In this document: in pieces, positions 1 to 19,427 of the stretch
Layout of the letters: every line of letters begins with the position of its first letter
How positions within the stretch are numbered: position 1 is the first letter of the stretch
NCBI GenBank assembly: GCA_028286835.1
Contig: JAQBQT010000011.1
Location: 5,246 to 69,245 of the forward strand
Direction: 5' to 3'
Length of the DNA stretch: 64,000 nt
DNA from: Candidatus Parcubacteria bacterium
Lineage (GTDB): Bacteria; Patescibacteriota; Minisyncoccia; Phycocordibacterales; PALSA-1337
The notes under the pieces: model-generated
What the model was told of the DNA's origin: nothing
The model's input: only the letters and a program-made list of their open reading frames with translations
Database searches by the model: none
Made by a program: the position numbers and the translations under genes

Positions 1-1338
1 AAGATCATTGACCGCCTCGAATATGATGAGGAGCTTCCTGATATGCTCGTCCTTGAGAAGGTCGTCGTCTGATTCTATGCGGAACGGTATGCCTTCTTTG
101 GCTAGAGCTTCCGCAACGGGAAATGCATCTTTGTTGTCATGATAGAGAACGGCGATCTCTTCGGGGTCGGCGCCGGCCGCTATCCGGGCCCTGATGTCTT
201 CGGCCACGAATGCCCGTTCGCTATCGGCAGAGGCGAATTCGCGAACCTGGATGAGCTGCGAGCCTTTCGCTGCACCTGCGCGGAGCTTCGCCCGGGTTAT
301 GCCCTCGGGCAGAGCGTTGCGCGTAATGAGGCTATGTGAAGCGTCGAGGATGGCCTGGGTGGAGCGATAGTTGTCTTCGAGGTCTATGAGGACAGCATCG
401 GGATACAAAGTTTTGAAGTGAAGGAAGTTCTGCAATGAGGCTCCTTGAAATCGAAAAATTGCCTGCTTCTCGTCGCCGACGATGAATAGATTTGGCTGGT
501 CATGAAAATTCGACAGAAGCTCGAGCACTGCGTTCTGGGCATTATTAGCGTCCTGATGCTCGTCAGCAAGGATATATTGATACATCTCCTGGAGGATGAG
601 CAGAAGATCCTCATCGGTGCGCATCGCCTTCACGGCTTCGACGATCATATCCTCGAAGTCATAGAATGATTGCTCGGTGAGCGCGGCTTCGTAGGCGCGA
701 TAGAGCTGCAAGAGCTCGGTGTTCTTTTTGATGCGCTCCTGGACCTTTATGAAATCGCCCTTCATCTTGCCGGCGTGTGCCCCTTTGGCATGGACCTTGT
801 CAGGCTCGTCATCGAAGGCCTTCTGCTGCTGGGCGATGATCTTTTCGAAATCATCAGGGCTTATGGTTTCGCGCTTCATGCTCCGGATGGCATCGAGAGC
901 AGGCCGGACATAATAGAACCGATCGCCATATGGCCTGAGGAATTCGAGCTTGGAATCTTCGATGATCTTCTCCATGATGGCGACCCTGTCTATATCCGCG
1001 ATGGCCGTCGAACCTATGATGCGCGGAAATCGCTCCGGATACTGGGCGATTACGTCATTGCAAAAGCCATGGAACGTATGGATCGCGACTTTGTAGCCTG
1101 CGGTGCCGATGGTCTCCACCAGTTTGCGACGCATAGTGCGGGCGCCGGATTCCGTGAATGTGAGGGCCAGAATGTTCTCAGGCGCGGTATCTGTGCGCTT
1201 GAGGATATTGGCGATGCGCAGGGTGAGAATGGTCGTCTTGCCAGTTCCTGGACCGGCAATGACCATGACGGGGCCTTCGATGGTATCGACGGCCTTCTTC
1301 TGGGCTTTATTGAGTCTTTTATACTGCTCGTCGAACAT
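1..1338 (-). CDS. uvrD: ATP-dependent DNA helicase, UvrD/PcrA/Rep family. N-terminal part only; the gene runs off the left edge of the window.
   Basis: Minus-strand translation from the ATG at 1336-1338 reads MFDEQYKRLNKAQKKAVDTIEGPVMVIAGPGTGKTTILTLRIANIL..ALTFTESGA..HTFHGFCN. This carries the Walker A motif and helicase motifs I-II. It is missing from the ORF track because no stop falls inside the window. The plus-strand ORF 670..1371 is its antisense shadow. Confidence 0.85.
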   Translation of the reverse strand, partial: MFDEQYKRLNKAQKKAVDTIEGPVMVIAGPGTGKTTILTLRIANILKRTDTAPENILALTFTESGARTMRRKLVETIGTAGYKVAIHTFHGFCNDVIAQYPERFPRIIGSTAIADIDRVAIMEKIIEDSKLEFLRPYGDRFYYVRPALDAIRSMKRETISPDDFEKIIAQQQKAFDDEPDKVHAKGAHAGKMKGDFIKVQERIKKNTELLQLYRAYEAALTEQSFYDFEDMIVEAVKAMRTDEDLLLILQEMYQYILADEHQDANNAQNAVLELLSNFHDQPNLFIVGDEKQAIFRFQGASLQNFLHFKTLYPDAVLIDLEDNYRSTQAILDASHSLITRNALPEGITRAKLRAGAAKGSQLIQVREFASADSERAFVAEDIRARIAAGADPEEIAVLYHDNKDAFPVAEALAKEGIPFRIESDDDLLKDEHIRKLLIIFEAVNDL

Positions 1339-1375
1339 GATGGCTTCATTATAGGATGCTATACTAGCTAACACC

Positions 1376-1954
1376 ATGCCTACGCAATCAAAAAAGAAAA
1401 ATATCGTCATCGCGCTCGTTGTCCTCTTTATCATTGCCGCAATCGGCGTTCTCTATACCCGTCATGCAGATGATGCTACTGCTTCCTGGAAGCCATACAC
1501 GAACGATGAGTTCGGCATAACAGTGAAGGCTCCTCCGGGATGGCATCTCATAGACAGTCTCAGCCCCATCACCCCCTGCTGCCTTTTCCTCCTGAATTAT
1601 GAGGAATCAGCCACGACCACCTATAAGAACCCGGGAAACATGAAGATCCAGATCGGCTACTACATCATTCCCGGATTCGATCCGTTCAAGCTCGGAAGCA
1701 CAACAAAGAAGACTCTTGGCAAGAATGTGGTCTACACCGGAACCGCAGCAAGCACGCCGTTCTATATCCTTCCCCGCACAGAGAAGGAAGGCTTCGGTCT
1801 TTCGGTTATCTCCCTTCCGGATAGCAGCGCAAAAGCCTCACAGATAGCTGAGAAGATCCTTGAAACAGCTGTGGTCAAGTCATTCGACTCCATGGTCGGC
1901 ACCACAACCGCAACATCGACAGCGACGACATCCGCAACAACGACAACCCGCTAG
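1376..1954 (+). CDS. hypothetical membrane-anchored secreted protein (N-terminal TM helix, Thr-rich C-terminal tail)
   Basis: ATG start. Hydrophobic helix IVIALVVLFIIAAIGVLY after a K-rich N-terminus. C-terminal TTTATSTATTSATTTTR low complexity. No family recognised. Confidence 0.55.
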   Translation: MPTQSKKKNIVIALVVLFIIAAIGVLYTRHADDATASWKPYTNDEFGITVKAPPGWHLIDSLSPITPCCLFLLNYEESATTTYKNPGNMKIQIGYYIIPGFDPFKLGSTTKKTLGKNVVYTGTAASTPFYILPRTEKEGFGLSVISLPDSSAKASQIAEKILETAVVKSFDSMVGTTTATSTATTSATTTTR

Positions 1955-1976
1955 CATTCGCGATCAATATGGAGAT

Positions 1977-2003
1977 AAAAAAGCCGCTTGAAGCGGCTTT
2001 TTT
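1977..2003. terminator. bidirectional rho-independent terminator between the convergent genes at 1376..1954 (+) and rpoD (-)
   Basis: Hairpin AAGCCGC-TTGAA-GCGGCTT flanked by an A6 run upstream and a T6 run downstream. Confidence 0.7.
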
Positions 2004-2005
2004 AA

Positions 2006-3232
2006 TTAATAGTTCTTGAGGCGATTCGCCTGATCATGCTGGCGGATCTTCTCATGGGCCTTTGCTTCGATCTGGCGGATGCGCTCGCGGGTGACGCCGA
2101 ATTCGCGGCCCACCTCTTCGAGGGTATGAGTGATGCCGTCATTCAGACCGTGGCGCATCTCGAGGATCTTACGCTCTTTTTCTGAAAGGTCGTTCAAAAT
2201 GACATTGACCTGATCGCGGAGGATGCGGCGGGATGCCTCGTCTGCTGGGGAAAGGATCTTGTCGTCCGGAATGAAATCCTGGAGCGTGGATTTGCTGTCG
2301 TCTGATGAATCATCGCCGACCGGGCTCTCGAGGGACACGACATCCTGCTCGATCTTCTCGATCTGGTAGATCTTGTCGACGTCCATACCCATTTCTGTGG
2401 CGATCTCATCTGGCAGCGGCTCACGACCGAGGTCCTGCATGAGGCGGCGGACGACCTGTTTGTATTTGGCGATGGTCTCGACCATATGGACCGGCACGCG
2501 GATGGTGCGTGACTGATCGGCGAGGGCGCGAGTGATAGCCTGGCGGATCCACCAAGTTGCGTATGTGGAAAACTTATAGCCCTTTGTCCAGTCGAACTTG
2601 TCGACGGCGCGGAAAAGGCCGAGATTGCCTTCCTGAATGAGGTCGAGAAGGGTCAAGTCCGGCGAGCGGCCCACGTACTTCTTGGCAATAGAAACGACGA
2701 GGCGGAGGTTGGCCTTTGCCAGAAGGTTCTTGGCTTCGAGATCGCCTGCCTGGATGCGCTTGGCGAGCTCCTTCTCCATGCTCGCGTTGATGAGCGGGTA
2801 CTGGCCGATCTCCTTCAGGTACATCTGAATGGAATCGTACGCGCTGTCGGAACCGCTTCGGGAATAGTGAGGAGCCTTCTTCTCCTTTTCCTTGAGGTCC
2901 TCCACCTCCAAAAGACCGCCGCCTTCGAGGACGTCGACGTTGGCAGAGGAGAGCTTGCTATAAAGATCGTCGAGGAATGTGATGTCATTCTCGATCTGCG
3001 GGAACTCTTTGAGGATCTCGTCGTAGGTGACGAAACCGCGGTTGCGCCCCTTCACAATGAGGGCCTGGGCCTTGGCCTCGAAGCTTTTGGCGGAATTCGC
3101 GCCCTTCGCGCCTCCTTTGGCCGAGGACCCGACGATGTTACGGGTGACAGAACGCTTCTTCGCGGCTGTGACACTGCGGGGCGACCGGCTGGAACGTCCG
3201 GCAGAACGGGCTGCTTTTTTTGGTTTGCTCAT
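2006..3232 (-). CDS. rpoD: RNA polymerase sigma factor RpoD (primary sigma-70)
   Basis: Region 2 motifs ([48 protein letters not shown]), region 3, and region 4 ([29 protein letters not shown]). Basic, low-complexity N-terminus. The track start at 3286 is TTG; I chose the ATG at 3232 (MSKPKK). The start is uncertain by 54 nt. Confidence 0.9.
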
Positions 3233-3320
3233 GGAGTAAGAGGTTAACGTACGGGCTATTGTACGCCAGAAATAGATTGGAGGCAAGTATTTCCCTGCAT
3301 ATAGCCTATTAGGGTAGACG

Positions 3321-5096
3321 TTACTTCCCCTTTCCTATTTCAGCTTTTCGCATCGACAGTTCCTGGCACTTCTTGGCCAATTCCGAAACAGTGGCGTTAT
3401 CTCCGGCGCGTTCGGCGGCGCGGAGCTTGGCCATGGTGTCCAGAAGCTCGGCATTGAGCATATCGCGCTCAAAGTTGACGATGAGATCATCCATATGGAG
3501 ATCCCAGCGCGAGATATCCTTTCCGAAAAGGGTGTCGACCTCGAAGAGCACGTCGCTCATGAGCGGCCTGATGCGTTCGACTCGCGCGGCGTACGTATCC
3601 CCGGCGATCTTCTCGATGCGGGTACGATAGCCTGGGGCGTTGGCGGATTGGGATTTCTCCATGAGCTCCAAGAGGCCGAACATGCGCCGTTCCACCAGAT
3701 CGATGCGTGTAGCAGCAGTCGATACCGAAGGAGCGGCAGCGGAAGCCTTTGGAGCCGGCTGTCGGATAGACGCTGAAGAAGCGCTCCCATCAGCCTTAAG
3801 CTTGGCTTCGGCGGCATGCACATCATCCCAGAGCGCCTGTTCGGGCAGATTGGCCTTGTCCGCTATGAGCCTTACCGCATATGCCTTGTCCGTGGCGCTT
3901 TCGAGATTGACCACGAATGGCAGGACGCGGTCACGAATGGCCTTTGGCACCTTGCGGGGATCCGCAGTTTCTCTCATGACATTGCCGAGCTCGAACTCCA
4001 CGACAGGCTTGGCAGCACGGAGGGCGTTCTTCCAGTCTTCAGGATTGCCGCGCACGAGATCCGCAGGATCCTTGCCTCCCTGTATGTCGCAGACTTTTAC
4101 GTCCATTCCTAGCGAGAGCGCGATGCCTGAAGCGCGCATGGCTGCCTTGCGGCCAGCCGAATCAGAATCGAATGCGATGATGACGTTGCTTGAGAGGCGC
4201 CGCAGAAGACCGAGATTGTTGACTACGCCTTCCCTGTTCGATTCAGCTTCGGCGAGAGCCGTGCCAGAAGCGGCGACTGCATTCTTGACCCCGGCCTGAT
4301 GGGACATGATGAGATCCATCTGCCCTTCGACTAGAATGGAATAGTCGAGCCTGCGTATGAAGCTCTTCGCTTTGTCGAGCCCATAGAGAACGGAAGATTT
4401 GTCGAACAAAGGCGTATCGGGGCTGTTAAGATACTTCGCCGACTTGCCGTCGTCCTTGAGGATGCGGCCAGAGAATGCGATCACGCGGCCGCTCGAATCG
4501 CTTATGGGAAACATGACACGGCCACGGAAGCGGTCATAGTATGTGCCCTTTTTATCTTCAGCTTCTTTGGCAAGACCGGCCTTGACGATGAGCTCTACAG
4601 GCCACTTCTTGGCCCGAAGAAAATCATGGAGATTGCGCCAGCCTTCGGGCGCCCAGCCGATCCTGAATTCCTGTCGGGTCTGATCAGTCGCCCCGCGGCT
4701 TTTGACATATTCTTTTGCGTCTGAGGACTTGATGAATTCTGCCTCGAAATACTTTGCGGCCTCTTCCATGATCTGGAACAGCCTGTCGCGTTCGCTGTCG
4801 GCCTTGCTGTCGAAGGTGAGAGTAACGCCCGCTCTGTCAGCGAGCACCTTAAGAGCGCCCTTGAAATCGAGCCCCTCGAACTGCTCTACGAAGGAGAAGA
4901 TGTCTCCCTTAGCGCTGCAGCCGAAACAATAGTAGCCACCACGGTCCGGAGATATGAAAAAGGAAGCTGTCTTCTCATGATGGAAGGGGCATTTGGCCTT
5001 GTACGATTTGCCGGATTTCTCAACCTTGATGTATGAGCCTATGACTTCTTCGATGGGCAAACGGGCCTTGATTTCCTCGACATTCGTGCGGTTCAT
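3321..5096 (-). CDS. dnaG: DNA primase DnaG
   Basis: N-terminal CHC2 zinc finger ([15 protein letters not shown]), TOPRIM region ([19 protein letters not shown]). ATG start. Sits upstream of rpoD, as in the classical macromolecular-synthesis operon. Confidence 0.9.
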
Positions 5097-5232
5097 GGGG
5101 GTAGTATAGCGGCTAGCGAGGACTTGTGGAAGCTTGCTTACACAAAGTCCGAGCGAAGACGATATATGAGCGCAGCGAGTATATACGAAAAATAAAAAAG
5201 GCGCCCAATTGAAACAAATGAGGAACTCGCCG

Positions 5233-5269
5233 GAAAAACAGAGCCCCTACCGCGGCAAGACGGTAGGGG
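5233..5269 (-). terminator. rho-independent terminator (9-bp GC stem followed by a U-tract) ending a short non-coding unit
   Basis: On the minus strand: CCCCTACCG-tcttgccg-CGGTAGGGG, then CTCTGTTTTTCC. Confidence 0.6.
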
Positions 5270-5394
5270 TTGTAAGGATATGCAACGGCAAGAGCGATGG
5301 TTCCTGACTTGCCGTACTCGATTGCTGTTGCAGATGCCTTAGGAGTAGCTGTGACCCACTTCGCTGTCTTTGCCTTGCTATGGGCAACGACCAC
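5236..5394 (-). ncRNA. candidate small non-coding RNA (~160 nt) between rpoC and dnaG; identity unknown
   Basis: An extended -10 (TGGTATGAT, minus strand ~5402-5410) lies immediately after the rpoC terminator. The predicted transcript contains no ATG at all and ends at the strong terminator at 5233-5269. The track ORF 5113..5406 has its ATG inside the -10 element and reads through the terminator hairpin, so it is probably spurious. Confidence 0.3.
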
Positions 5395-5410
5395 CGCGTA
5401 TATCATACCA

Positions 5411-5438
5411 GATACACAAAAGCCCCCGAAGGGGCTTT
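5411..5438 (-). terminator. rho-independent terminator downstream of rpoC
   Basis: Minus strand: AAAGCCCC-TTCG-GGGGCTTT followed by TGTGT. It sits 22 nt after the rpoC stop. Confidence 0.65.
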
Positions 5439-5460
5439 GCGTGAATAAATAAATGTCTGA

Positions 5461-8400
5461 CTATTCCCCGTCCAATTCCGGGCTGTTGGCGTGGATGGCG
5501 TCGATCATGGCCTTCTTCGGAGAACCCGGGAAACCGGTTCCTGCCGGAACGAGACGGCCAATGATGACGTTCTCCATGAGGCCCACGAGGTCGTCTTCGG
5601 CGCCGCGGACTGCGTTGCCAATGAGGACGCGGGTCGTGTGCTGGAATGAGGCAGCTGAGAGGAATGACTTGCGGGACAATGAAGTCTCCGTGATGCCCAT
5701 CACGAGCCTTTCAGTCTTGGCCTGAGTCTGGCCGGCCTCCTTGGCGCGGTCGTTCTCTTCGCCGAGCTGGATGTCGTCGACGATCATGCCTTCGGTGAAC
5801 TGCGTCTCGCCTGCTTCGGAGATGCGGCGGCGGCTGAACATCTGCTTCACGATGAGCTCGATGTGCTTTCGCGACACCGTCTCGCCCTGGAGCTCGTAGA
5901 TCTTGCCGATCTCATTGATGACGTAATCCTTCGCGCGCTCCTCGCCTCCGTATTCGAAGACTTCGTCGATGTCAGCCGAGCCGTCCGTGAGGATCTGGCC
6001 CTTGGTGACCTTGTCGCCGACCTTCACGAGGGTCGTGCGGCGGTATGGGAAGACGTATTCGATCTCGGCCGCCTTCTTCGGAGCCTTCGCAGAGGCGGAT
6101 GCCTTGCTCTGGTCTTCGATCTCAGGGAGGACCTTGATCATCTTCTCTTTGCCCATATCCCTTACTTCCAGGATAACGCCGTCGACTGAGGCGACGACAG
6201 CCGGGATCTTCGGGCGGCGCTTCTCAAAGACTTCTTCGACGCGAGGGAGACCCTGCGTGATGTCGCCGCCTGCTGAGGCAGCTCCGCCGGCGTGGAATGT
6301 TCGCATCGTGAGCTGTGTGCCAGGCTCGCCGATAGCCTGAGCTGCAACGGTGCCTACGGCTTCGCCGAGGGCGACCAGTTCATTGCGGCCGAGGTCCATG
6401 CCGTAGCATTTGGCGCAGACGCCGCGGATGGTCTTGCATGAGAGCGGCGAACGGACCGCGACCTGATTGATGCCTGCATCCTCGATGACCTGAGCATCAG
6501 CCTTCGTGAGCATAGTGCCCTTCTTGAAGAGGACTTTGCCGTCTGCGTCCGTCACGTCTTCCGTGATCATGCGGCCGCGGATGTTCTTCGAGAGAGGGAT
6601 GTTCATGCCTGAGGCTGTCTGGCGGTGGATGACGATCGACTCCTTGGTTCCGCAGTCGACTTCCGAGACGACGACGTCCTGGGCGACGACGAAGAGCTTG
6701 CGCGTGAGGTAACCGGCCTTGGCTGTGTTGAGAGCCGTGTCAGTGAGACCCTTGCGCGAGCCGTGAGTGGTGATGAAATATTCGATCGGCGTAAGGCCTT
6801 CCTTGGCGCAGGACAGAATCGGGAATTCGATGGTCTCGCCGGAAACTGAGGCGATAAGGCCCTTCATGCCTGCCATGATCGTGATCTGAGAGAGCGATCC
6901 GCGGGCGCCGGATGTGACCATGTCGTAGACGGAACCCATCTTGTCGAGGGATGCCGGAATGGCCTTCTCCACTTCGCCCTTGGCCTTCTGCCAGATCTCG
7001 ACGTGCTTCCTGATGCGCTCTTCCTCGGTGAGGAGGCCTTCGCTGAAGTGCATGGTGACGATATCGACCTGCTTCTTTGCGCGGCCGATGATCTCCCCCT
7101 TCTCCTGTGGGATCTTGATGTCATCGATGCCCCACGTCGTGCCTGAATATGTGGCGTAGCCGAAGCCGAATGTCTTCACGCGGTCGAGGATGGGAGCGAT
7201 ATGATTCGGTCCGTAGAGCGTGATCATGTCATCGACGATGGCGCCGAGCTTCTTGCGGCCGACTTCCTCGTTGATGAATGTGTACTCTTCCGGAAGGACT
7301 GCGTTGAAGAGGATGCGTCCCACGGTCGTTTCGAAGATGCCTCCGTTGAAGCGTTCGTACTTCTTCGTGTTCGGGGCGAGCACCTTCACCTTGGCGCGGA
7401 GGTCGATGGCCTTGAATGAGTGAGCGAGAGCGGCAGCATCAGGAGATTCGAAGATCTTGCCTTCGCCGAGCGTCTTCTCTGCTATCTTCGTGACCCAGAA
7501 ACAGCCGAGCACGATGTCGAGCATCTTTGCCGTGACTGTCGGATCGTTGTTACCCGGCTTGAGGACGTTCTTGTCAGCAGCCATGATCTCCTTGGCTTCC
7601 TTCTGAGCTTCGTCGGAAAGCGGTACGTGAATGGCCATTTGGTCGCCGTCGAAGTCGGCGTTGAAAGCCGTACATACGAGCGGGTGAACCTGGATGGCAT
7701 TGCCTTCGATAAGGGTCGGGCGGAATGCCTGGATGCCGAGGCGGTGAAGGGTCGGGGCGCGGTTCAGGAGAACGTACTTGCCCTTGATGACCTCTTCGAG
7801 GATCTCCCAGACTTCCTTGGCGCCGTCGTCTATGAGGCGGTTCGCGCCGCGGATGTTATAGGCGAGCTCGCGCTTGAGGAGGCCGGAAATGATGAACGGG
7901 CGGAACAATTCGAGGGCCATGTGCTTCGGAAGGCCGCACTCGTCGAGCTTGAGCTCAGGACCGACGACGATCACTGAACGGCCGGAATAATCTACGCGCT
8001 TTCCGAGAAGGTTCTGGCGGAAGAGGCCGCGCTTCGACTTGAGCGAATCTGAAAGCGACTTGAGGGCGCGCTTCTCGCGGGCGAGAGCTGCGGCGCCTGC
8101 GGACGATGAATGGCGGATGGAGTTGTCGATGAGGGCGTCGACAGCTTCCTGGAGGATGCGCTTCTCGTTGCGGAGAATGACTTCAGGGGCGTGGATCTCC
8201 TTCAATTTCAAAAGGCGGTTGTTGCGGTTGATGACGCGGCGATAGAGGTCGTTCACATCGGACGTCGCGTAGCGACCACCGTCGAGGGCGACCATCGGGC
8301 GAAGCCCTGGCGGAATGACCGGAATGCGGACGAGGAACATCCATTCAGGACGGATCTTCGCCTTGATCATCTGCTTCACGAGCGAGAGGCGCTTTGCGAG

Positions 8401-9162
8401 CCTGTCGCTGTCGGCGGCTCCGGCCGTTTCGTATGCGGCTTCGAGCTCGGTCTGGAGCTTGGAAAGGTCGATCTTCTTCAAGAGATCATAGATGGCTTCT
8501 GCGCCGATCGATGCTTCGAAGAAACCGCCGTATTTGACTGCGAACTTATGATAGGTGACTTCGTCGAGGACGAGGCCTGCCTCGATGGACTCGATCTCCT
8601 TGCGGGCGCCGAGGAGGAGCTCCTTGAGAGCCTCCTTCGTCTTGTCGTCGTTGGCGGTCTTGACCTTGGTCTTATATTCAGCGTCGAGCTCCTTCAAGAA
8701 GCGGGCCTTCTCTGCCTCATCGACTTTGCCGATGATATAGCCTGCGAAGTACACGACCTTCTCGAGGTCTGCTGTCGTCATGCCGAGAATGAGTCCGATC
8801 CTGGACGGAACCGAGCGGAGGAACCAGATATGCGAGACCGGCGTGGCGAGCTCGATGTGGCCCATGCGGTCGCGTCGGACAATAGAGCGCGTTATCTCAA
8901 CGCCGCACTTCTCACAGACGATCCCCTTATAGCGGATGCCGCGATATTTTCCGCAGTAGCATTCGTAGTCGCGGTCTGGACCGAAGATGCGTTCGTCGAA
9001 GAGACCGCTCTTTTCCGAGCGCTGGGTGCGGTAGTTGATGGTCTCAGGCTTGGTGACTTCGCCGTATGACCACTCGAGGATCTTCTCAGGAGACGCGAGC
9101 TGGAGGCGCACTGCGTCGAACTGTACCGGATCCGCTGGCTTCTTTGTGATGGTTGGTTGCAT
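5461..9162 (-). CDS. rpoC: DNA-directed RNA polymerase subunit beta' (RpoC)
   Basis: 1233 aa. Zinc-binding CxxC..CxxC near the N-terminus, catalytic NADFDGDQM, and trigger loop/bridge helix regions. ATG start. Sits 11 nt downstream of rpoB. Confidence 0.97.
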   Translation of the reverse strand: MQPTITKKPADPVQFDAVRLQLASPEKILEWSYGEVTKPETINYRTQRSEKSGLFDERIFGPDRDYECYCGKYRGIRYKGIVCEKCGVEITRSIVRRDRMGHIELATPVSHIWFLRSVPSRIGLILGMTTADLEKVVYFAGYIIGKVDEAEKARFLKELDAEYKTKVKTANDDKTKEALKELLLGARKEIESIEAGLVLDEVTYHKFAVKYGGFFEASIGAEAIYDLLKKIDLSKLQTELEAAYETAGAADSDRLAKRLSLVKQMIKAKIRPEWMFLVRIPVIPPGLRPMVALDGGRYATSDVNDLYRRVINRNNRLLKLKEIHAPEVILRNEKRILQEAVDALIDNSIRHSSSAGAAALAREKRALKSLSDSLKSKRGLFRQNLLGKRVDYSGRSVIVVGPELKLDECGLPKHMALELFRPFIISGLLKRELAYNIRGANRLIDDGAKEVWEILEEVIKGKYVLLNRAPTLHRLGIQAFRPTLIEGNAIQVHPLVCTAFNADFDGDQMAIHVPLSDEAQKEAKEIMAADKNVLKPGNNDPTVTAKMLDIVLGCFWVTKIAEKTLGEGKIFESPDAAALAHSFKAIDLRAKVKVLAPNTKKYERFNGGIFETTVGRILFNAVLPEEYTFINEEVGRKKLGAIVDDMITLYGPNHIAPILDRVKTFGFGYATYSGTTWGIDDIKIPQEKGEIIGRAKKQVDIVTMHFSEGLLTEEERIRKHVEIWQKAKGEVEKAIPASLDKMGSVYDMVTSGARGSLSQITIMAGMKGLIASVSGETIEFPILSCAKEGLTPIEYFITTHGSRKGLTDTALNTAKAGYLTRKLFVVAQDVVVSEVDCGTKESIVIHRQTASGMNIPLSKNIRGRMITEDVTDADGKVLFKKGTMLTKADAQVIEDAGINQVAVRSPLSCKTIRGVCAKCYGMDLGRNELVALGEAVGTVAAQAIGEPGTQLTMRTFHAGGAASAGGDITQGLPRVEEVFEKRRPKIPAVVASVDGVILEVRDMGKEKMIKVLPEIEDQSKASASAKAPKKAAEIEYVFPYRRTTLVKVGDKVTKGQILTDGSADIDEVFEYGGEERAKDYVINEIGKIYELQGETVSRKHIELIVKQMFSRRRISEAGETQFTEGMIVDDIQLGEENDRAKEAGQTQAKTERLVMGITETSLSRKSFLSAASFQHTTRVLIGNAVRGAEDDLVGLMENVIIGRLVPAGTGFPGSPKKAMIDAIHANSPELDGE

Positions 9163-9173
9163 GATAGTGATTG

Positions 9174-12100
9174 TTATTCGGCGTCAACGATCTTCGGCTT
9201 GCTGATAAGTTCGACATTCAATGCCAATCCGCGGAGGGTCTTCAAAAGGACATTAAAGGATGCTGGCAAATTCGGTGCGCGGAGGCGTTCGCCCTTCACG
9301 ATGGCGTCGAAGGTCTGCGAACGGCCGACAATATCGTCGGACTTCACCGTCAGGATCTCGCGCAGAGTATGCGCTGCACCGTGGCCGAGGAGAGCCCAGA
9401 CTTCCATTTCTCCGAAGCGCTGGCCGCCGCCCTGGGCCTTGCCGCCGAGAGGCTGCTGGGTGATGAGGGAGTAAGGACCGATGGAACGCATGTGGATCTT
9501 GTCTTCGACCATGTGATGAAGCTTGAGGATATACATGTATCCGACGGCTACGACCTGGTCGAAGTGCTCGCCTGTGCGTCCGTCGCGGAGCTTCATCTTG
9601 CCGGAGGCATCGTAGCCTGCCTTGACGAGCTCTTCCTTGATCTCGGCTTCGGTCGCGCCGGTGAACGGCGGAACGATGGCCTGATATCCCAGGGAGTTCG
9701 CTGCGAGACCAAGGTGCAATTCGAGGATCTGGCCGAGGTTCATGCGGCTCGGAACACCGAGTGGCGTGAGGATCACGTCGACTGGCGTGCCGTCTTCCAT
9801 GTACGGCATGTCTTCTTCCGGAAGGATCTTGGAGATGACACCCTTGTTGCCGTGGCGTCCGGCCATCTTGTCACCGACAGAGACATTGCGGACTTCTGCG
9901 ACTTCGATGTAGATCTTCTTGATGATGCCCGATTCGAGCTTGTCGCCGCGCTCGCGTGAGAACACTTTGACTGAAATGACGCGGCCGCGCTTGCCGTTCT
10001 CCATGCGCTTCGATGTGTCTTTGACGTCGCGTGCCTTCTCGCCGAAGATGGAGCGGAGGAGGCGCTCTTCAGGAGTGAGCTGCGTCTCGCCTTTCGGTGA
10101 GATCTTGCCCACGAGGATATCGCCCGGGCGGACTTCTGCGCCGATGCGGACTATGCCCTCTTCCGTGAGATTCTTGAGCTTGGCTTCGCCGACGTTCGGG
10201 ATGTCGCAGGTCGTGACTTCCGGACCCAGCTTGGTGTCGCGGACGTTGACGACGAACTCTTCGATATGGACGGAGCTCCACTTGGAGTTCTTGACGACGC
10301 GCTCCGAAAGGATGATGGCGTCTTCGTAGTTGTTTCCGGACCATGACATGAATGCGATCAGAGCGTTGTGGCCGAGAGCGATCTCGCCGTTGTCTGACGT
10401 TGAAGTGTCAGCGAGAACCTGGCCCTTCTTCACCTTATCGCCGACAGAAACGATCGGGCGCTGATGGAAGGCTGTGAAGCCGTTGGTGCGCTGGAAAAGG
10501 ACGAGATCGTACTCGCGCTTCTTGCCGGACTTCTTGCCGTGGAATGTGATCTTCTTGGCGTCGACGGCTGTGATCTCGCCTTCTTCAGGGGCGACGATGA
10601 TGCGGCCTGTGTCGAGAACGGCTTTGTGCTCCATGCCTGTGGCGACGAACGGAGCTTCCGGAACAAGGCACGGCGTGGCTTGGCGGAGCATGTTCGATCC
10701 CATCAATGCGCGGTTGGCATCGTCATGGTTGAGGAACGGGATGAGGGACGTTGCGATAGAAAAGGCCTGGTTGGTCGCGACGTCGATGAAATCCACGTCG
10801 GTGATCTTGGCGAGAGAAGGCTTGCCGTTGATGCGGACCTCTACTTCGTCGCCTTCGATGGTACCGTCTTCGGCGCGCGCCATGGCGGCATGGGCGATTC
10901 GGAAGTTCTCTTCCTCAAGGGCGTTGAGGTAGACGATCTCCTTCGTGACTTTGCCGTTCTTGACCTTGGCATACGGAGTCTCGATCATGCCGAAATCGTT
11001 GATGCGGGCATATGTGGTGAGGCGGAGCACGAGACCGATGTTCGGACCTTCAGGGGTGTGGATCGGGCAGAGGCGGCCGTAGTGGGACGGGTGAACGTCG
11101 CGGACTTCGAAGCCTGCGCGCTCGCGTGAAAGGCCTCCGGGACCGAGGGCAGTCAGAGTGCGGAGATTCTCGATCTCGCCGAGCGTGTTGGTCTGTTCCA
11201 TGAACTGGGACAGCTGGTTCGTTGAGAAGAATTCCTTGATGCGGGCCTGGAGAGGGCGCGGGTATATGAATGAGACAGGCATGGTGACATCCGGTTCGAT
11301 CGTGGACATCTTGTCCTGGATGTTTCGCTTCATCTGCGAAAGGCCTAGGCGGACACGCTGTTCGAGGAGCTCTCCTACGTAGCGGACGCGGCGGCTTCCG
11401 AGGTGGTCGATGTCATCAGCCTGCATGTCAGGGGTGATATTGAGCATGACGATGTGAATGATCGCGGTCGCAAGATCATCGACGTCGAGCGTGCGGCGTT
11501 CGAGAGCCTTCTCGTCCATGGACTTTCCGAAGCGCTTGTTGAAGCGAAAACGGCCCACGCGCGAGAGGTCGTAGCGGTCCTGGTTGAGGAGGGTCTGTAT
11601 GAATGAGCGGGCGTTGTCCGGAGTGGCCAGATCGCCGTCGCGGAGGCGCTTGTGGATCTCTATGTATGCCTCTTCGGGGGTCTTGGCATGATCCTTGGCG
11701 AGCGTGAGCTCCATGATCTTGCGGGCCTCTTCGTTGCCCTTGAAGAGATCCATGATCTTGGCGTTGGTGTCTGCGCCGGTGATGCGGAGGAGCGATGTGA
11801 CCGGGAACTTGCGCTTCCTGTCGATCCTGCAATAGACGGTGCCGTCGGTGTCGGTCTCGATCTCCATCCAAACGCCGCGGGCCGGAATGATCTTGGCGCC
11901 GAAGTAGTTCTTGCCCTTCGTTTCCGTAGCCGTGAAGAAAATGCCGAATGAGCGGGCGAGCTGAGGGACGATGACGCGCTCGACGCCATTGATGATGAAC
12001 GTGCCGTGATCGGTCATGAGCGGCAGGTCAGCAAGGAACATCTCCTGCTCCTTGACCACATTCAAGGATTTGTTCTTCAGGATGACGCGGATCTTGAGCT

Positions 12101-12365
12101 GACCCTCGTAGTTGAGCTTGTTCTCCTTCGCGTAGTGCTCGCCGAACTTCGGGCGGATGAGCTCGATGCCTCCCATCGAGAGCTCGAACTTCTTCTCGGC
12201 ATAGTCCTTGATCGGAGAGAACTCCTTGAGGAGGTTCGGCAATCCCCTTTCAACGAGATCGGTGAAAGAGAGGAGCTGGGACTCCACGAGATGCGGCATC
12301 TCTGTGAGCGGCTCCTGATATCGTGCGAAATACTTCTTTGGGCGCGGACCTGTTTGGATATGCAT
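9174..12365 (-). CDS. rpoB: DNA-directed RNA polymerase subunit beta (RpoB)
   Basis: 1063 aa. The N-terminus KKYFARYQEPLTEMPHLVESQLLSF matches the beta N-terminus. Rif-cluster-like region. ATG start at 12363-12365. Confidence 0.97.
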   Translation of the reverse strand: MHIQTGPRPKKYFARYQEPLTEMPHLVESQLLSFTDLVERGLPNLLKEFSPIKDYAEKKFELSMGGIELIRPKFGEHYAKENKLNYEGQLKIRVILKNKSLNVVKEQEMFLADLPLMTDHGTFIINGVERVIVPQLARSFGIFFTATETKGKNYFGAKIIPARGVWMEIETDTDGTVYCRIDRKRKFPVTSLLRITGADTNAKIMDLFKGNEEARKIMELTLAKDHAKTPEEAYIEIHKRLRDGDLATPDNARSFIQTLLNQDRYDLSRVGRFRFNKRFGKSMDEKALERRTLDVDDLATAIIHIVMLNITPDMQADDIDHLGSRRVRYVGELLEQRVRLGLSQMKRNIQDKMSTIEPDVTMPVSFIYPRPLQARIKEFFSTNQLSQFMEQTNTLGEIENLRTLTALGPGGLSRERAGFEVRDVHPSHYGRLCPIHTPEGPNIGLVLRLTTYARINDFGMIETPYAKVKNGKVTKEIVYLNALEEENFRIAHAAMARAEDGTIEGDEVEVRINGKPSLAKITDVDFIDVATNQAFSIATSLIPFLNHDDANRALMGSNMLRQATPCLVPEAPFVATGMEHKAVLDTGRIIVAPEEGEITAVDAKKITFHGKKSGKKREYDLVLFQRTNGFTAFHQRPIVSVGDKVKKGQVLADTSTSDNGEIALGHNALIAFMSWSGNNYEDAIILSERVVKNSKWSSVHIEEFVVNVRDTKLGPEVTTCDIPNVGEAKLKNLTEEGIVRIGAEVRPGDILVGKISPKGETQLTPEERLLRSIFGEKARDVKDTSKRMENGKRGRVISVKVFSRERGDKLESGIIKKIYIEVAEVRNVSVGDKMAGRHGNKGVISKILPEEDMPYMEDGTPVDVILTPLGVPSRMNLGQILELHLGLAANSLGYQAIVPPFTGATEAEIKEELVKAGYDASGKMKLRDGRTGEHFDQVVAVGYMYILKLHHMVEDKIHMRSIGPYSLITQQPLGGKAQGGGQRFGEMEVWALLGHGAAHTLREILTVKSDDIVGRSQTFDAIVKGERLRAPNLPASFNVLLKTLRGLALNVELISKPKIVDAE

Positions 12366-12385
12366 GTGGATAAGATTGTGGATAA
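12365..12385 (-). promoter_or_regulatory. two perfect DnaA-box 9-mers (TTATCCACA on the minus strand) in tandem, 3 bp apart, overlapping the rpoB start codon
   Basis: Plus strand reads TGTGGATAA at 12365-12373 and again at 12377-12385. A perfect 9-mer is expected about once per 130 kb per strand, so two in tandem is unlikely by chance. Function is unproven. Confidence 0.3.
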
Positions 12386-12640
12386 CCTGTTTATAAAAAC
12401 GAACCGATCTCTTTCACACTCTTTATTTTTCCCTCTCGATCTCTCAAAACCGCCGACGCAAAAAACGCAAAAGCCGTTCTCCAGGGACGGGAACGGTGCG
12501 GAATTTGAATTACCTCAAATGTTTTGACACTGGTAGGACTAATGATGAACCTTTCTAATCCTTCAACTATAGGCAGAACTCACTCGGTGAAGTTATTGAT
12601 ACCCTAGCAAATAGCCAAAGTTAAGTCAATAGGATAATTC

Positions 12641-13342
12641 CTACTTCCCCTTCTTTCCCTTCAATTTCCACTCATCTATGAGCGCATGGTTCCCCCCGAG
12701 CAGTACTTTCGGCACTTTGTACTTTTTGCCCTTGAATTCAAGGACTTCGGGACGGGTATACACGTCTGAGCTGGCTATGCGGGATTCTTCGATAGAAAGG
12801 TCGTCGCCGAGGACTCCAGGGATGCGTCGCGATACGGTATCGATGACTATCATGGCCGGAAGCTCGCCGCCGGTAAGCGTGTAAGGACCGACCGAAACCG
12901 GCATGGTCTTGAAAGCCTGATTCACGCGGGCATCGATGCCTTCATAGCGTCCGCAGATAAGGACGATGTCGGTAAGGGTCTTGAATGAGTCGGCAGCGGC
13001 ATTCGAGAACTGTTCGCCGGCCGGGCTGAAGAAAAGTATCTTCACTTTCTTGGCCGAAGCCGCCTTAGCAAGCTTCTTGCCCACCGCCTTGTCGATGGCC
13101 TTCAAGATCGGCAGCGCTTCGATGACCATTCCTGGACCGCCTCCATATGGGCGCTTGTCCACGCGGCGATCGGCAAAACTGAGTTTGTCAGCCTTCTTGC
13201 CTTTCGGGACTGCGACAAAATCGCGCGGGTTGTAGCACTTCACCGAAATAAGCCCGCGCTCGCCTGCGCGCCTCACGATGGAAGCATTCAGGTACGATTC
13301 GAGGCTTTCGGGAAAAAGCGTTATGACATGAAACGTGATCAT
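12641..13342 (-). CDS. trmD: tRNA (guanine37-N1)-methyltransferase TrmD
   Basis: MITFHVITLFPE start, SPOUT-knot motifs (GRYEGID, GGELPAMIVID). ATG start. Confidence 0.9.
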   Translation of the reverse strand: MITFHVITLFPESLESYLNASIVRRAGERGLISVKCYNPRDFVAVPKGKKADKLSFADRRVDKRPYGGGPGMVIEALPILKAIDKAVGKKLAKAASAKKVKILFFSPAGEQFSNAAADSFKTLTDIVLICGRYEGIDARVNQAFKTMPVSVGPYTLTGGELPAMIVIDTVSRRIPGVLGDDLSIEESRIASSDVYTRPEVLEFKGKKYKVPKVLLGGNHALIDEWKLKGKKGK

Positions 13343-13359
13343 GCCGCTACTCTAGCATA

Positions 13360-13779
13360 TTACCGGGCGTTGGGAACTTGAGCGGGCTGATGAGCTAAAA
13401 ACTTACGATCGAGCGACAGCATGTCCGCGCCTGCGCAGAATATTGAGAATGTCGCGGCAGCGAGACCGATATCGCGGACTCCGACCGGAGAAATGCCGAT
13501 GGTTGCAGCGATCCCAACAAGATGGAGGGCGAGAAGGAGCGCTGCTATGCGGGTTTGGAAGCCGACGAAAAGAGCGAGACCGAATATAAGCTCGAACCAG
13601 GCATTCAAGAGAACAAGGAGTACGGCATTGCCGCCGAACAAGGCGACCACGCCCTGAGGCACATACCCTGTCCACGCGGAAGGATCAGAGAACTGGCTGA
13701 AGCTGAAGTAAAAGAACACCAGGCTCATGCCGATGCGGACGACAACTGGTGCGTATGCGGTTAGGCGTGATGTATTCAT
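13360..13779 (-). CDS. DoxX family membrane protein
   Basis: 139 aa with four hydrophobic helices. RIGMSLVFFYFSFSQF and FELIFGLALF patterns typical of DoxX. Confidence 0.7.
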   Translation of the reverse strand: MNTSRLTAYAPVVVRIGMSLVFFYFSFSQFSDPSAWTGYVPQGVVALFGGNAVLLVLLNAWFELIFGLALFVGFQTRIAALLLALHLVGIAATIGISPVGVRDIGLAAATFSIFCAGADMLSLDRKFLAHQPAQVPNAR

Positions 13780-13788
13780 GTGTTGGAA

Positions 13789-14253
13789 CTATTTAACCAA
13801 AGCACCGATGTAGAACGTGGCGAGTTCGGACGCAGGACGTCGTTCTCCCCCGTGCTGTCCATTGAAAGCAGACGAGCCGTCTTTGCCACACAGGCTTAGG
13901 ATCGGATTCTGACCTCCCGGATGCTGATTGATCCATGAAGTCACGTCGTAGACCTTGCCGTTGATGGCTGTCCAGCAGCTAGATGCATTCGTGTGCGCTG
14001 AAACATCCGCCATACTGTACGTCTTGCCCTGAGAAACGCCGGTGCCCACTGTCGCTCCTGCGGAAACACCGCTCGTGTCAGCAGTCGTGGCATTCGGATT
14101 GCCCGCATTCGGGTTCAATGTCTCTGAGCCTGCTGAAGTGCCGCCGGTGAATGGCGAAACGCCACCGTTTGAAGCCTGCTTATTTGAAACGACAATGGCG
14201 ATTGCTCCGATAATAAGTACAGCGATGATAGCGAGAGTGATTTTTGTTCTCAT
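13789..14253 (-). CDS. membrane-anchored cytochrome b5-like heme-binding domain protein
   Basis: N-terminal TM helix, a Gly/Thr-rich linker, then WTAINGKVYDVTSWINQHPGG, which matches the cytochrome b5 HPGG heme-binding signature. Confidence 0.6.
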   Translation of the reverse strand: MRTKITLAIIAVLIIGAIAIVVSNKQASNGGVSPFTGGTSAGSETLNPNAGNPNATTADTSGVSAGATVGTGVSQGKTYSMADVSAHTNASSCWTAINGKVYDVTSWINQHPGGQNPILSLCGKDGSSAFNGQHGGERRPASELATFYIGALVK

Positions 14254-14286
14254 GTGTAATTGATGAAATAAAATGAAGTAAACAGG

Positions 14287-14673
14287 CTATTCTAATTTCA
14301 GATCTGCCATGGCTTCGTCCACAGTCTTTGATGCAGATTGGCCTGATGAGCGTGACGGGGCTTCCGATGAGGAAGACTGCGATGAACCTGAGCCCATGTT
14401 GCCCATATTCTCTGGCGAACGGAGGCCGCCGGCAGGTTCGTTGATCTTCAGATTCACGCGCGAGTTGTTCTTCATGCCGACGACGCGGAGAAGGGTACGG
14501 ATGGACTTGGCCGTGTTGCCCTGGCGTCCGATGATCTTGCCCATATCGGCTGCGGAAATATCCAAAGTGAGGAGCACGCCCATCTCGTCGACGGAGCGGA
14601 TGATTTTGACCTCTTCAGGATTGTCTACCAAAGCTTTTATAACGTATTCGAGGAATTGCTGGTCTTGAGGCAT
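14287..14673 (-). CDS. KH-domain RNA-binding protein (YlqC/UPF0109 family)
   Basis: LTLDISAADMGKIIGRQGNTAKSIR carries the KH GxxG loop. The position immediately downstream of rpsP matches the conserved rpsP-KH-(rimM)-trmD neighbourhood. Ser-rich C-terminal tail. Confidence 0.8.
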   Translation of the reverse strand: MPQDQQFLEYVIKALVDNPEEVKIIRSVDEMGVLLTLDISAADMGKIIGRQGNTAKSIRTLLRVVGMKNNSRVNLKINEPAGGLRSPENMGNMGSGSSQSSSSEAPSRSSGQSASKTVDEAMADLKLE

Positions 14674-14771
14674 ATGTGTAGTGCTAGCTTATCTGTTAAA
14701 TCGTACAGACAATATCCTGTACTGCTAAAATTGTAGCAGATACTGAAGGGGCGTCAAAGCCTATAGTAATA

Positions 14772-15125
14772 CTATGCTGTTGCGGCCTGTGGTGCAGGAG
14801 CAGTGGCGGCGGCCGGAGCTGCGGCTGCATCCCCTTCTTTTTTGATAGGAGTCTTCTTTGGGAGAGCGTTGACCTTCTTGCCGGCGATGGCCTTCTGGTG
14901 GACGAGGAAATTATGGAGCGTGACGGAAAGCTGCGCGCCCTGGGATATCCAGCGCTTTATCTCCTCCACTTCGAGCTGATCGAGTGTGTTCTTGCGGCGA
15001 GTATCGTACCAGCCGAGGTTCTTGAGGTATTTGCCGCTCTTAGGGCCGTTCTTTGAGTCGGTCAAAACGACACGAAACGTTGGTTCGTGCTTGCGGCCTA
15101 CGCGTTGGAGCCTGATCATTAGCAT
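14772..15125 (-). CDS. rpsP: 30S ribosomal protein S16 with a C-terminal Ala/Pro-rich extension
   Basis: MLMIRLQRVGRKHEPTFRVVLTDS..YLKNLGWYD is a classic S16 N-terminus. The track ORF extends 43 codons further upstream; the ATG at 15125 is preceded by TGGTAAAGT (an extended -10) 7 nt away, which implies a leaderless mRNA. Confidence 0.85.
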   Translation of the reverse strand: MLMIRLQRVGRKHEPTFRVVLTDSKNGPKSGKYLKNLGWYDTRRKNTLDQLEVEEIKRWISQGAQLSVTLHNFLVHQKAIAGKKVNALPKKTPIKKEGDAAAAPAAATAPAPQAATA

Positions 15126-15164
15126 GCGAAGGACTTTACCAGATTGCGGAATAGAACGCAACAT

Positions 15165-15173
15165 TGGTATACT
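15165..15173 (+). promoter_or_regulatory. extended -10 element (TGGTATACT) 6 nt upstream of the response-regulator ATG (leaderless architecture)
   Basis: seen directly; this is the divergent partner of the rpsP extended -10 about 40 bp away. Confidence 0.45.
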
Positions 15174-15179
15174 GCGGCC

Positions 15180-15872
15180 ATGAAAATATTGATAGTCGAA
15201 GATGATCGGAACATGGCCCAAGTCGTCAAAGACAGCCTGACGGCTTACTCCCATACCGTCGACATTTCAAGCGACGGGGCTGACGGCTCATTCCTCGCAC
15301 GAAGCTACGAATACGACGCGATCGTCCTCGACTACAATCTCCCGAAGAAAGACGGTCTGGCCATCTGCCGCGAGATACGCGCCGCGGGCAAGACCACTCC
15401 GATCATATTCATGTCGGTGACGGATGATCCGACGACTAAGATAGCGGCCCTGCGCCAGGGCGCGGATGATTACATCACCAAGCCTTTTTCCCTTGAAGAA
15501 TTGAGGGCCCGCCTCGATGCGGTCTCACGCCGCTCGCCTGTTATTAAGCAGGCTTCCCTTCGGGTGGGCGATCTGTTCCTCGATTCGAGCATGCACAAGG
15601 CGACGCGCTCAGACTCGACCATCCAGCTCACCCGCAAGGAGTTCCATATGCTCGAATACTTCATGCAGAATGCAGGCACCATCCTTTCGCGCGCCCAGCT
15701 CATGGAGCATATCTGGACCGCAGACGGGAATCCGTTCTCGAATACCGTCGAAGCGCACATACGCAACCTCAGGAAGAAGCTTAACGCCGACGGGGCAGCG
15801 AATCTCATCATCAATGTGCCTGGAAGAGGCTACATCCTCGATAGCCCGGAAAATCTCGCGCGCTTCAAATAG
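15180..15872 (+). CDS. OmpR-family two-component response regulator (receiver + winged-helix domains); no adjacent histidine kinase
   Basis: MKILIVEDD, the D..D..K receiver pattern, and a C-terminal winged helix (LTRKEFHMLEYFMQNAG..VEAHIRNLRKK). The track start at 15144 is TTG; the ATG at 15180 fits the family. Confidence 0.85.
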   Translation: MKILIVEDDRNMAQVVKDSLTAYSHTVDISSDGADGSFLARSYEYDAIVLDYNLPKKDGLAICREIRAAGKTTPIIFMSVTDDPTTKIAALRQGADDYITKPFSLEELRARLDAVSRRSPVIKQASLRVGDLFLDSSMHKATRSDSTIQLTRKEFHMLEYFMQNAGTILSRAQLMEHIWTADGNPFSNTVEAHIRNLRKKLNADGAANLIINVPGRGYILDSPENLARFK

Positions 15873-16145
15873 AAAACGCTCCCAAGCAGGATTGCGATCG
15901 ACATTTTATTATTTTTTGAATCTTTCTTCACGAAGATTTTAACTTTTCTTCACCGGGATTTGATGGCCCGACTGCTACGCTTGGCATGGTTATGTGTCGA
16001 CATAGCCATTATCAATCAAGGTATGATCATTCCCACGGCTTCTTCCTGAGGCGTCGATGTGTTTTCTGCGCTTTTGTCATGACGGCAGCCATGCGAAAGC
16101 AGCCGTGAGCCGTGCGGAATTCATCGCGCGGCTTTCGGCGTTGGC

Positions 16146-16919
16146 TTATTTCTTCTTCCCTTCCTGCTGGACATCGCGAGCCGCCTTGCGGTAGTTGCAA
16201 TAGTCGCAGAGCGATGCCGGCTTCGGAGGAGTCGGCGCTTCCAGGCACTTCCTCATGTCCATAAGTGTCTTCTCCACCCAGGAATCGTCGCCTTTATACG
16301 GAATGATGTCCACGTCGAATTCGAGCTTTGCGTCGAATGCCTTGCGATCCGTCTTACCGTTGCAATAGACGAAATATCCGGTATCGGAGACTTTCAAATC
16401 GTTCTTTCGGAGGAGCCATTGATAGACTTCCATCTGGCGCTTGTATCCGATCTGCCATTCGCTGTCGAGATTGACCTTGGATTCTTTGCTTGTCGCTTTA
16501 TAGTCCACGACGATGAGCTCTCCCTTTCCGTTGATCCACACATCATCGACTCCACCGGTCACATTGAAATTGGTAGGTTCGTGCACGAATGTGACGCCGC
16601 GCTTCAGAGCGTCGCGCCATGCTTCCATCCTGGAATCGGCGTACGGCACGACATCCTTGAGTCCGAATGCCTCCATGAGCGGATGAGCTGATTTTGCGGC
16701 GCGATGGATATCGAACTCCTTCTTGAGGAGCGTATCGACAGCGCTGTTGAGGTTGAACGGGAAGCCTGGCGGACGGGCTACGCCCATCTTGCGATCCAGA
16801 TAGAAGCAGAGCGGGCAGTTCAGGAATAGGTCGATCTTGGAACGGCTTATGCGAAAAGGCTCTGCTCCTTCCGGATCGTAGAGGCCTTTGGTTCTGCGGG
16901 GGTTGTAATAATCAGACAT
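16146..16919 (-). CDS. Cas4/RecB-like PD-(D/E)xK nuclease with a 4-Cys cluster, standalone
   Basis: N-terminal CPLC, core GELIVVDYKATSK (the D-x-K motif), QMEVYQWLL (the QxxxY motif), and C-terminal CDYC. No cas genes or CRISPR array nearby. Confidence 0.65.
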   Translation of the reverse strand: MSDYYNPRRTKGLYDPEGAEPFRISRSKIDLFLNCPLCFYLDRKMGVARPPGFPFNLNSAVDTLLKKEFDIHRAAKSAHPLMEAFGLKDVVPYADSRMEAWRDALKRGVTFVHEPTNFNVTGGVDDVWINGKGELIVVDYKATSKESKVNLDSEWQIGYKRQMEVYQWLLRKNDLKVSDTGYFVYCNGKTDRKAFDAKLEFDVDIIPYKGDDSWVEKTLMDMRKCLEAPTPPKPASLCDYCNYRKAARDVQQEGKKK

Positions 16920-16997
16920 GGAGACATGTTATCACATGGATAAAAAATAGGCGCTTCGATCGAGAAGCACCTATTTTTAGCGACAGCACTATCTATA

Positions 16998-17684: not shown

Positions 17685-17687
17685 AGA

Positions 17688-18731: not shown

Positions 18732-18775
18732 GGCATCATCCTAGCACAGCACCGCGAAGAGCCGCTACGAACGGG

Positions 18776-19354: not shown

Positions 19355-19411
19355 GTAATGAATTATGAAATGGTTAAACGGTTAAATACCATATGCATTA
19401 TAGCAGTTGTG

Positions 19412-19420: not shown

Positions 19421-19427
19421 TTCCCGC

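Follow-up and report, generated by a model that had tools for sequence, protein, structure and literature searches.

We propose that the spacer between rpoC and dnaG in this DNA of a member of the Patescibacteria (Candidatus Parcubacteria) carries a lineage-specific, independently transcribed and structured small RNA (sRNA) of ~160 nt that acts in trans. Judged from its sequence signals and from comparison with related loci, we give this reading a probability of about 65%. The whole 64-kb stretch of DNA that was analyzed is referred to as the window, and coordinates are given on its minus strand. A first-pass annotation of the window had described the element as a self-contained non-coding transcription unit and a candidate sRNA. 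This description is supported by the transcription signals, by searches that returned neither a protein nor an Rfam match, and by the presence of homologs. The unit in the window and the units on two contigs from Paceibacteria metagenomes, L167 and L087, most likely constitute one narrow sRNA family outside Rfam, which we call ‘sRNA-B’. All relatives used in the comparison are Patescibacteria/Paceibacteria MAGs.

The features of the locus are listed in Table 1. The rpoC terminator hairpin, ‘termA’, begins 25 nt past the rpoC stop codon and has the core GCCCC-UUCG-GGGGC, which A/U flanks extend to 12 bp. Read from the sequence, the hairpin with its UUCG loop is GCCCCTTCGGGGGC, followed by TTTTGTGT. 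The stretch UUUUGUGU lies 3' of the hairpin, and the extended -10 starts 3 nt further on, directly past the rpoC terminator as the first-pass annotation had stated. There is no usable -35 for this element, and the -35 position falls within the rpoC terminator hairpin. At ~160 nt downstream of the extended -10 lies the strong terminator that had been noted earlier, ‘termB’, which consists as RNA of CCCCUACCG / UCUUGCCG / CGGUAGGGG and then CUCUGUUUUU (5269..5234). Its stem has 9-10 bp, with seven G-C among 10 pairs, and it is the top-ranked terminator-like site in positions 1..20000. The predicted transcript has its 5' end at ~5396-5394 and its 3' end near 5235. We also confirmed that no ATG occurs between 5395 and 5234, and that the ATG of ORF 5113..5406 is the one within the -10 hexamer TATGAT, from which this ORF reads through termB.

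Table 1. Coordinates of the features at the rpoC-dnaG locus of the window and at related loci
Feature	Position	Strand	Sequence or basis
rpoC	9162..5461	minus	Pfam; stop codon TAG at 5463..5461
rpoC terminator hairpin (termA)	~5440..5412	minus	ACGCAAAGCCCC-UUCG-GGGGCUUUUGUGU; upstream bound of the unit
Putative extended -10	5410..5402	minus	TGGTATGAT; sequence reading
Domain 1 (predicted)	5395..5344	minus	P1, junction and P1b; own MFE fold and comparison with L167 and L087
Domain 2 (predicted)	5340..5274	minus	Long imperfect hairpin AAGG...CCUU; folds, nhmmer and pair counts
Terminator (termB)	Stem 5269..5244, U-tract to 5234	minus	CCCCTACCG / TCTTGCCG / CGGTAGGGG, then CTCTGTTTTT
dnaG promoter module	5195..5096	minus	TCCACA-16-TATACT, 6 nt to the ATG at 5096; leaderless arrangement
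dnaG	5096..3321	minus	DnaG gene; product 100% identical to a DnaG from a Candidatus Parcubacteria bacterium MAG
Extended -10 of L167	L167:2547-2555		TGGTATGCT
Extended -10 of L087	L087:2233-2241		TGTTATAGT
sRNA-A loci	L161:58-146, L162:2893-2974, L002:2782-2865, L004:1023-1144, L106:2382-2471, L124:2331-2453, L163:2351-2471		

Each taken alone, the signals in the window do not exceed chance. The -10 motif TGNTATNAT occurs seven times in the window against 6.3 expected and is not enriched, and 19 terminator-like sites were found against 17.5 expected, so that there is no overall enrichment of these either. The whole unit on the minus strand folds at -56.8 kcal/mol (z = -2.7 against shuffles), and the unit body without the terminator is no more stable than its shuffles (z = -1.2). 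The element stands above chance because the order of promoter, body and terminator, together with compensatory changes, recurs in two other genomes.

A first pass with blastn and nhmmer over 160 related loci yielded terminator similarity and an 80-nt match to L087 only, and the nhmmer comparison of the window with L087 gave E = 0.012. L167 was obtained by fetching the contigs of RpoC relatives. The C-terminus of its RpoC is 83% identical to that of the window, and its unit of ~210 nt lies directly after the rpoC terminator and ends in a GC-rich terminator. The L167 and L087 units match each other over their full length (nhmmer E = 1.2e-5). In L087 the unit does not adjoin rpoC and is located between a copy of the GCCCCTTCGGGGGCTTTTGTGT hairpin and dnaG. 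In all three members the pattern TGnTAT..T occurs right after a terminator hairpin. Terminators related to termB, with stem positions changed on both sides, are found in L087 (CCCCUCGCCG/CGGCGGGGG), in L167 (CCCCGCCGC/GCGGCGGGG) and at L006:2470-2507. L006 was rejected as a family member, as only its terminator resembles termB. The first-pass annotation had held that its reading would fail if the element were not conserved in related genomes; two such genomes carry homologous units.

We folded the three units separately, and their MFE structures share one plan, consisting of a helix P1, an asymmetric junction, a helix P1b, a long hairpin and the terminator; the minus-strand fold of the window, which had been suggested as a check, accordingly comprises two domains and the terminator. 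P1 of the window pairs GGUGGUCG (5395..5388) with CAGCUACU (5351..5344) over 8 bp, in a register that is ambiguous by 3 nt in the covariance-model alignment. The corresponding strands are AGUAGCUG/CAGCUACU in L167 and GGUUGUUG/CAAUGGCC in L087. The junction has C opposite AUA in L167 and L087, and UU opposite CA in the window. P1b pairs GCCCAU (5385..5380) with GUGGGU (5359..5354) in the window, CUCGCG with UGCGAG in L167 and CCCGUC with GACGGG in L087. We defined the 5' domain of the family by a P1 of 8 bp, a junction of 0-2 nt on one side and 2-3 nt on the other, and a P1b of 5-6 bp, and the window element has all of these. Its P1b closes a loop of 20 nt (5379..5360) that carries AAAGACAGC, where L167 and L087 have AAAGCAGCUGCC. 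The loops of L167 and L087 measure 50 and 65 nt, and the branched insert within P1b (hairpins and GGAUCC) is missing from the window. From this comparison of sequences, the window copy is a reduced variant without the 50-65 nt branched insert.

The predicted second domain contains at its apex GCAAU (5325..5321), GGCAAGUC and AUCGCUCU (5298..5291), and the stretches closest to the homologs, according to nhmmer against L087, are GCAAU/GCGAAU, GCAAG and UCGCUCU. As a mark of the family we took a long P2 hairpin that contains an inner helix GCGAA/UUCGC and a 3' stretch UUUCGCUCUCGAUA; the outer P2 is present in the window, where the inner strands read GCAAU/AUCGC and leave one A.C mismatch. The MFE fold of the window pairs the apex unlike those of L167 and L087 and does not contain the shared P2b helix; forcing this helix on the window costs 5.4 kcal/mol and leaves the A.C mismatch. 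The fold of the L167 unit gave z = -5.2.

Covariation among relatives was examined with a segment-anchored alignment, A6, which was made by hand on the predicted helices. Standard pairs account for 91.6% of the 107 cells in A6, and 15 of its 36 pairs have both partners changed; with three sequences these values are indicative only, and the pair count leans towards structure because the alignment was anchored on the helices. None of 500 shuffles reached these values, and slid partners gave 37-55% paired cells with one to four such pairs. By helix, the paired cells amount to 95.8% in P1, 100% in P1b and 87.5% in the outer part of P2, with three, five and six pairs changed on both sides, respectively. 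The window itself has four of 35 helix cells unpaired. Its mismatches are C.A in P1 and, in the inner helix of domain 2, A.C. When the three units were aligned with MAFFT, an internal GCAGCTGCC repeat caused domain 1 to be misaligned and the RNAalifold output was meaningless, so these alignments were dropped. As a test with less bias, we built a covariance model from L167 and L087 alone. With filters off, this leave-one-out model placed the window element (5401..5228) first in the 64 kb and over its full length, with a score of 13.2 bits and a rough E-value of 0.008, and the next match had E = 0.47; with default filters the element was missed. The shared fold is a prediction, for which the compensatory changes in the two homologs provide indicative support.

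The scan with Rfam/Infernal that the first-pass annotation had proposed was run with Rfam 15, and at gathering thresholds it returned no family for the units of the window, L087 or L167. At E <= 10, the best matches of the window scored 13-19 bits against gathering thresholds of 37-95 and were chance-like, and the L087 and L167 units likewise gave chance-level matches alone. ARAGORN found no tRNA or tmRNA at the window locus or at the homologous loci; the six tRNAs that it placed in the window are all distant (56.9-63.7 kb). The earlier statement that the element is not S21, 6S, SRP, tmRNA or RNase P RNA was borne out in that no homolog, Rfam match or ARAGORN match pointed to any of them. The window contains no second copy of the element, phage and plasmid records show no similarity to it, and motif scans of IMG/VR gave chance matches only, inside phage coding sequence.

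The rpoC-dnaG slot had been described as one that usually holds rpsU. This serves here as context only, and it is the gene order rpoC-dnaG-rpoD that is the rule in this clade. Among the relatives (L001-L171), the spacer between rpoC and dnaG ranges from -4 to ~2900 nt and contains, for example, the end of an RT-like ORF (L133), a Ser_hydrolase gene (L163), a gene for a pilin-like N_methyl protein (L169) and, in L087 and L006, small ORFs without a Pfam family. Read from these sequences, gene turnover has a hot spot in this spacer, which is also a mosaic of modules. One module is the dnaG promoter region of ~100 nt, which is ~78% identical to L042:2990-3095 from a more distant relative, where it precedes a different gene of 196 aa. 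Within the module, the block TCGCTnCGCTCATATATCGTCTTCnCTCGG is almost invariant, and an inverted repeat, GGACTTTGTG...CACAAGTCC, overlaps the -35 and may be an operator; two pairs of the L042 repeat (GGGTTTCGTG..CACAAACCC) are changed on both sides relative to the window. The window and nearly all relatives (e.g., L001, L005, L010, L016, L161 and L162) have the dnaG -10 (TATACT/TATAAT) 6-7 nt upstream of the ATG and lack a Shine-Dalgarno sequence. From this arrangement, dnaG appears to be leaderless throughout the clade, and with its own promoter it would not need the upstream unit for its transcription. The sRNA-B unit is absent from the rpoC-dnaG slot of L162, L001 and L106, and a different unit occupies the 166 nt before dnaG that are visible in L161, which with 86% DnaG identity is the closest relative found. 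When ~1.1 Mb of related loci were searched with a model from all three sequences, no further member appeared, so that the family is rare and patchy.

Several other explanations of the element have to be weighed against an sRNA acting in trans. ORF 5113..5406 stays open for 97 codons and spans the whole spacer, the C-terminal half of its product would be hydrophobic, and a GTG at 5394 lies 7 nt past the -10, the same spacing as in leaderless dnaG. The spacer might on these grounds be taken as a small protein gene, encoded either by this ORF (97 aa) or from a leaderless GUG start at 5394, an idea that we find hardly credible. The first-pass annotation had judged a protein product unlikely and had named a significant homolog of the ORF as evidence that would overturn its reading. 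A HMMER scan of 1.84 billion representatives gave no real homolog; the sole match was weak (E 5.5e-5) and covered residues 64-96, that is, the part beyond the terminator. Pfam likewise had no family for this ORF or for two other overlapping ORFs. The homologous unit of L087 has stops in all three frames, an ORF across the L167 homolog (a JGI call) is not similar to the window ORF, tblastx against all loci gave no support for protein coding, and the homologous loci share no conserved reading frame. Moreover, the ORF crosses the conserved terminator, the stem changes of which pair as RNA (TAC/GTA vs CGC/GCG) and are not conservative in protein. The strand of the RNA may also be questioned, because in the window the plus strand folds better than the minus strand, both as a whole unit (-64.4 kcal/mol, z = -4.2, vs -56.8 kcal/mol, z = -2.7) and as the body (-45.2 vs -37.3 kcal/mol). 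A functional plus-strand RNA, antisense to rpoC and dnaG, is nevertheless very improbable. The plus strand has no promoter-like site, and no U-tract was seen by eye after either of its hairpins. In L087 and L167 it is the given strand that yields the lower z-values (-2.2 and -2.8, against -0.6 and -2.0 for the opposite strand). The consensus helices contain 15 G.U cells vs four A.C cells, and those of L087 alone seven vs none, an excess that, as a property of the sequences, favours the strand of rpoC and dnaG.

A structured RNA and a terminator placed before an operon form the classic layout of a cis-acting leader or attenuator, in which transcription from the extended -10 would enter dnaG-rpoD unless termB forms, and the L087 terminator lies ~25 nt before the dnaG start region. 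However, the position of the dnaG -10 and the lack of a Shine-Dalgarno sequence mean that a read-through mRNA would be leadered and have no ribosome-binding site. The window has 140 nt between termB and dnaG, a space that contains a separate and conserved promoter module, and the L167 unit is followed by non-coding hairpins for 250 nt up to the contig end, with no dnaG visible. None of the three units matched an Rfam riboswitch, and past the terminator there is no controlled ORF in the same unit, as a riboswitch would have. Given the separate leaderless promoter of dnaG and the lack of an ORF further along the unit, a role in cis is unlikely, and we place little credence in an attenuator of dnaG-rpoD. 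A different possibility is that the window holds a decaying relic of an sRNA-B gene, in which the terminator alone would retain a role, that of shielding the leaderless dnaG promoter from upstream transcription. We regard this as unlikely, with the following evidence on its side: the window copy is without the 50-65 nt insert, it has C.A and A.C mismatches in P1 and P2b, its body folds no better than shuffles, the family is patchy, and the spacer is a mosaic with a fast turnover. On the other side, domain 1 retains both of its closing helices, and the promoter element, the long hairpin and the terminator, with its perfect 9 bp, are likewise intact. Relative to L167, P1 has four substitutions, three of which keep pairing via G.U, and the deletion is a clean one, after which P1b still closes a loop with the AAAG(A)CAGC motif.

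For the preferred reading, an sRNA acting in trans, we suggest the following course. RNA polymerase with a sigma-70-type factor would start at the extended -10 past the rpoC terminator. The ~160-nt transcript would fold into a 5' domain, with P1 and P1b around the AAAG(A)CAGC loop, and a long 3' hairpin, the apex of which holds the most conserved sequence (GCAAU/GCGAAU, GCAAG and UCGCUCU). Transcription is predicted to end at the strong and conserved intrinsic terminator, and the stable RNA may then act in trans through its conserved apical and loop sequences; its partner would be a protein or another RNA.

In its layout the element resembles stand-alone bacterial sRNA genes, such as RsaE/RoxS and SR1 of Firmicutes, which are intergenic, have a sigma-70-type promoter element, measure 100-250 nt, consist of stem-loops and a Rho-independent terminator, contain no ORF and have a narrow range. 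It differs from them in matching no curated family, in its host, an uncultured Patescibacterium, and in that the conservation of sRNA-B lies mainly in helices, which show compensatory changes, and not in one clear single-stranded seed. The gene adjoins those of RNA polymerase and a sigma factor, a location that brings an RNA polymerase-binding RNA to mind, and its size is similar to that of 6S RNA (RF00013). However, there was no match to RF00013 at E <= 10, and the predicted fold of the element has two separate domains and a terminator instead of a long rod with a central bubble. Its position directly downstream of rpoC on the same strand also recalls sRNAs derived from 3'UTRs, such as CpxQ and SroC. 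In contrast to these, there is a complete terminator hairpin between rpoC and the element, the extended -10 is kept in all three members, and the L087 unit is not beside rpoC.

Our full-text literature search turned up no sRNA described for Patescibacteria (CPR) at this locus or of this kind, and no experimentally studied sRNA of Patescibacteria. These bacteria have small genomes with little room for non-functional DNA. If the element is conserved and independently transcribed, it would offer a testable entry into RNA-based regulation in Patescibacteria, and the RNA catalogues would gain sRNA-B as a new family. Because only three members are known, the benefit in practice is modest for now, and the interest would grow if several undescribed RNA units of the spacer form one system. 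Relatives carry other units with a promoter and a terminator in this spacer, which suggests that the slot commonly hosts RNA genes. It is conceivable, although we consider it doubtful, that the spacer is an island of several undescribed RNA genes, consisting of sRNA-B, sRNA-A, a tRNA-like element and the units of ~480 nt described below, and that sRNA-B is an interchangeable part of a system which works through RNA and is linked to the machineries of transcription and replication. As an equally doubtful example, sRNA-B might bind RNA polymerase or primase, in a lineage without a recognizable 6S-type RNA.

Among the other units, one of 75-120 nt upstream of dnaG is likewise undescribed, and we call it ‘sRNA-A’. 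It has a canonical promoter (TTGACA-17-TAnAAT), an invariant 5' hairpin, GUCGAU..UCGAC, followed by UGGUGGA, a variable middle and an invariant 3' hairpin, ACACAnnGCCCCUUCGGGGGCUUUUGUGU. It has no Rfam match, and our model R1 scores 76-92 bits in its seven loci (Table 1). The window element shares with sRNA-A the rpoC-dnaG slot, an own promoter and a hairpin terminator, but the body of sRNA-A is unlike that of the element. The 22-nt core of termA, GCCCCTTCGGGGGCTTTTGTGT, recurs unchanged as the 3' hairpin of sRNA-A in L002, L004, L106 and L161, whereas L124 and L162 have a near-identical version with one mismatch. We ruled out that the window element is a derivative of sRNA-A, as R1 matches the rpoC terminator hairpin only.

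Just upstream of sRNA-A, a tRNA-like cloverleaf is found at L004:~922-1000, L106:~2283-2360 and L124:~2207-2290, which neither ARAGORN nor Rfam calls. Its acceptor stem is of the G3:U70 type, with an invariant G.U at the third pair, the D arm has 4 bp, the ‘anticodon’ arm has a 5-nt loop (UUACC or UAACC) and the T arm is GCGGG-UGCAACU-CCCGU. In an unsupervised alignment of the three sequences, 10 of 31 pairs are compensatory. By eye, the ‘anticodon’ loop is complementary to UGGUAA of sRNA-A.

Directly past the rpoC terminator, L163 (~610-1090) and L002 (~2260-2760) contain non-coding stretches of ~480 nt, each equipped with a strong promoter of the form TTGACA-17-TATACT and, at its end, a hairpin terminator; the L002 stretch has no Rfam match, and these may be a larger undescribed RNA. 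A 110-nt unit at L001:195-320, the fold of which gave z = -4.0, combines a TTGATA-16-TACATT promoter with a terminator of its own. It contains GCGAA-AGCAAGAC-AUAG, with 17 of 20 nt in common with the L087 apex, and is not matched by the sRNA-B family model. In L167, two near-perfect palindromic hairpins, ACTTACTCTCACA/TGTGAGAGTAAGT and GGACTTACTCCCA..TGGGAGTGAATCC, follow the terminator (2790-2900) and start like the CGGACTT hairpin downstream of the terminator in the window. Further on there are repeated ATTTGAACCC motifs, like those upstream of the tRNA-like element of L004. Finally, the sole Rfam match above its gathering threshold in 16 related loci is an unrelated DUF3800-II RNA at L082:5089-5158 (49.9 bits).
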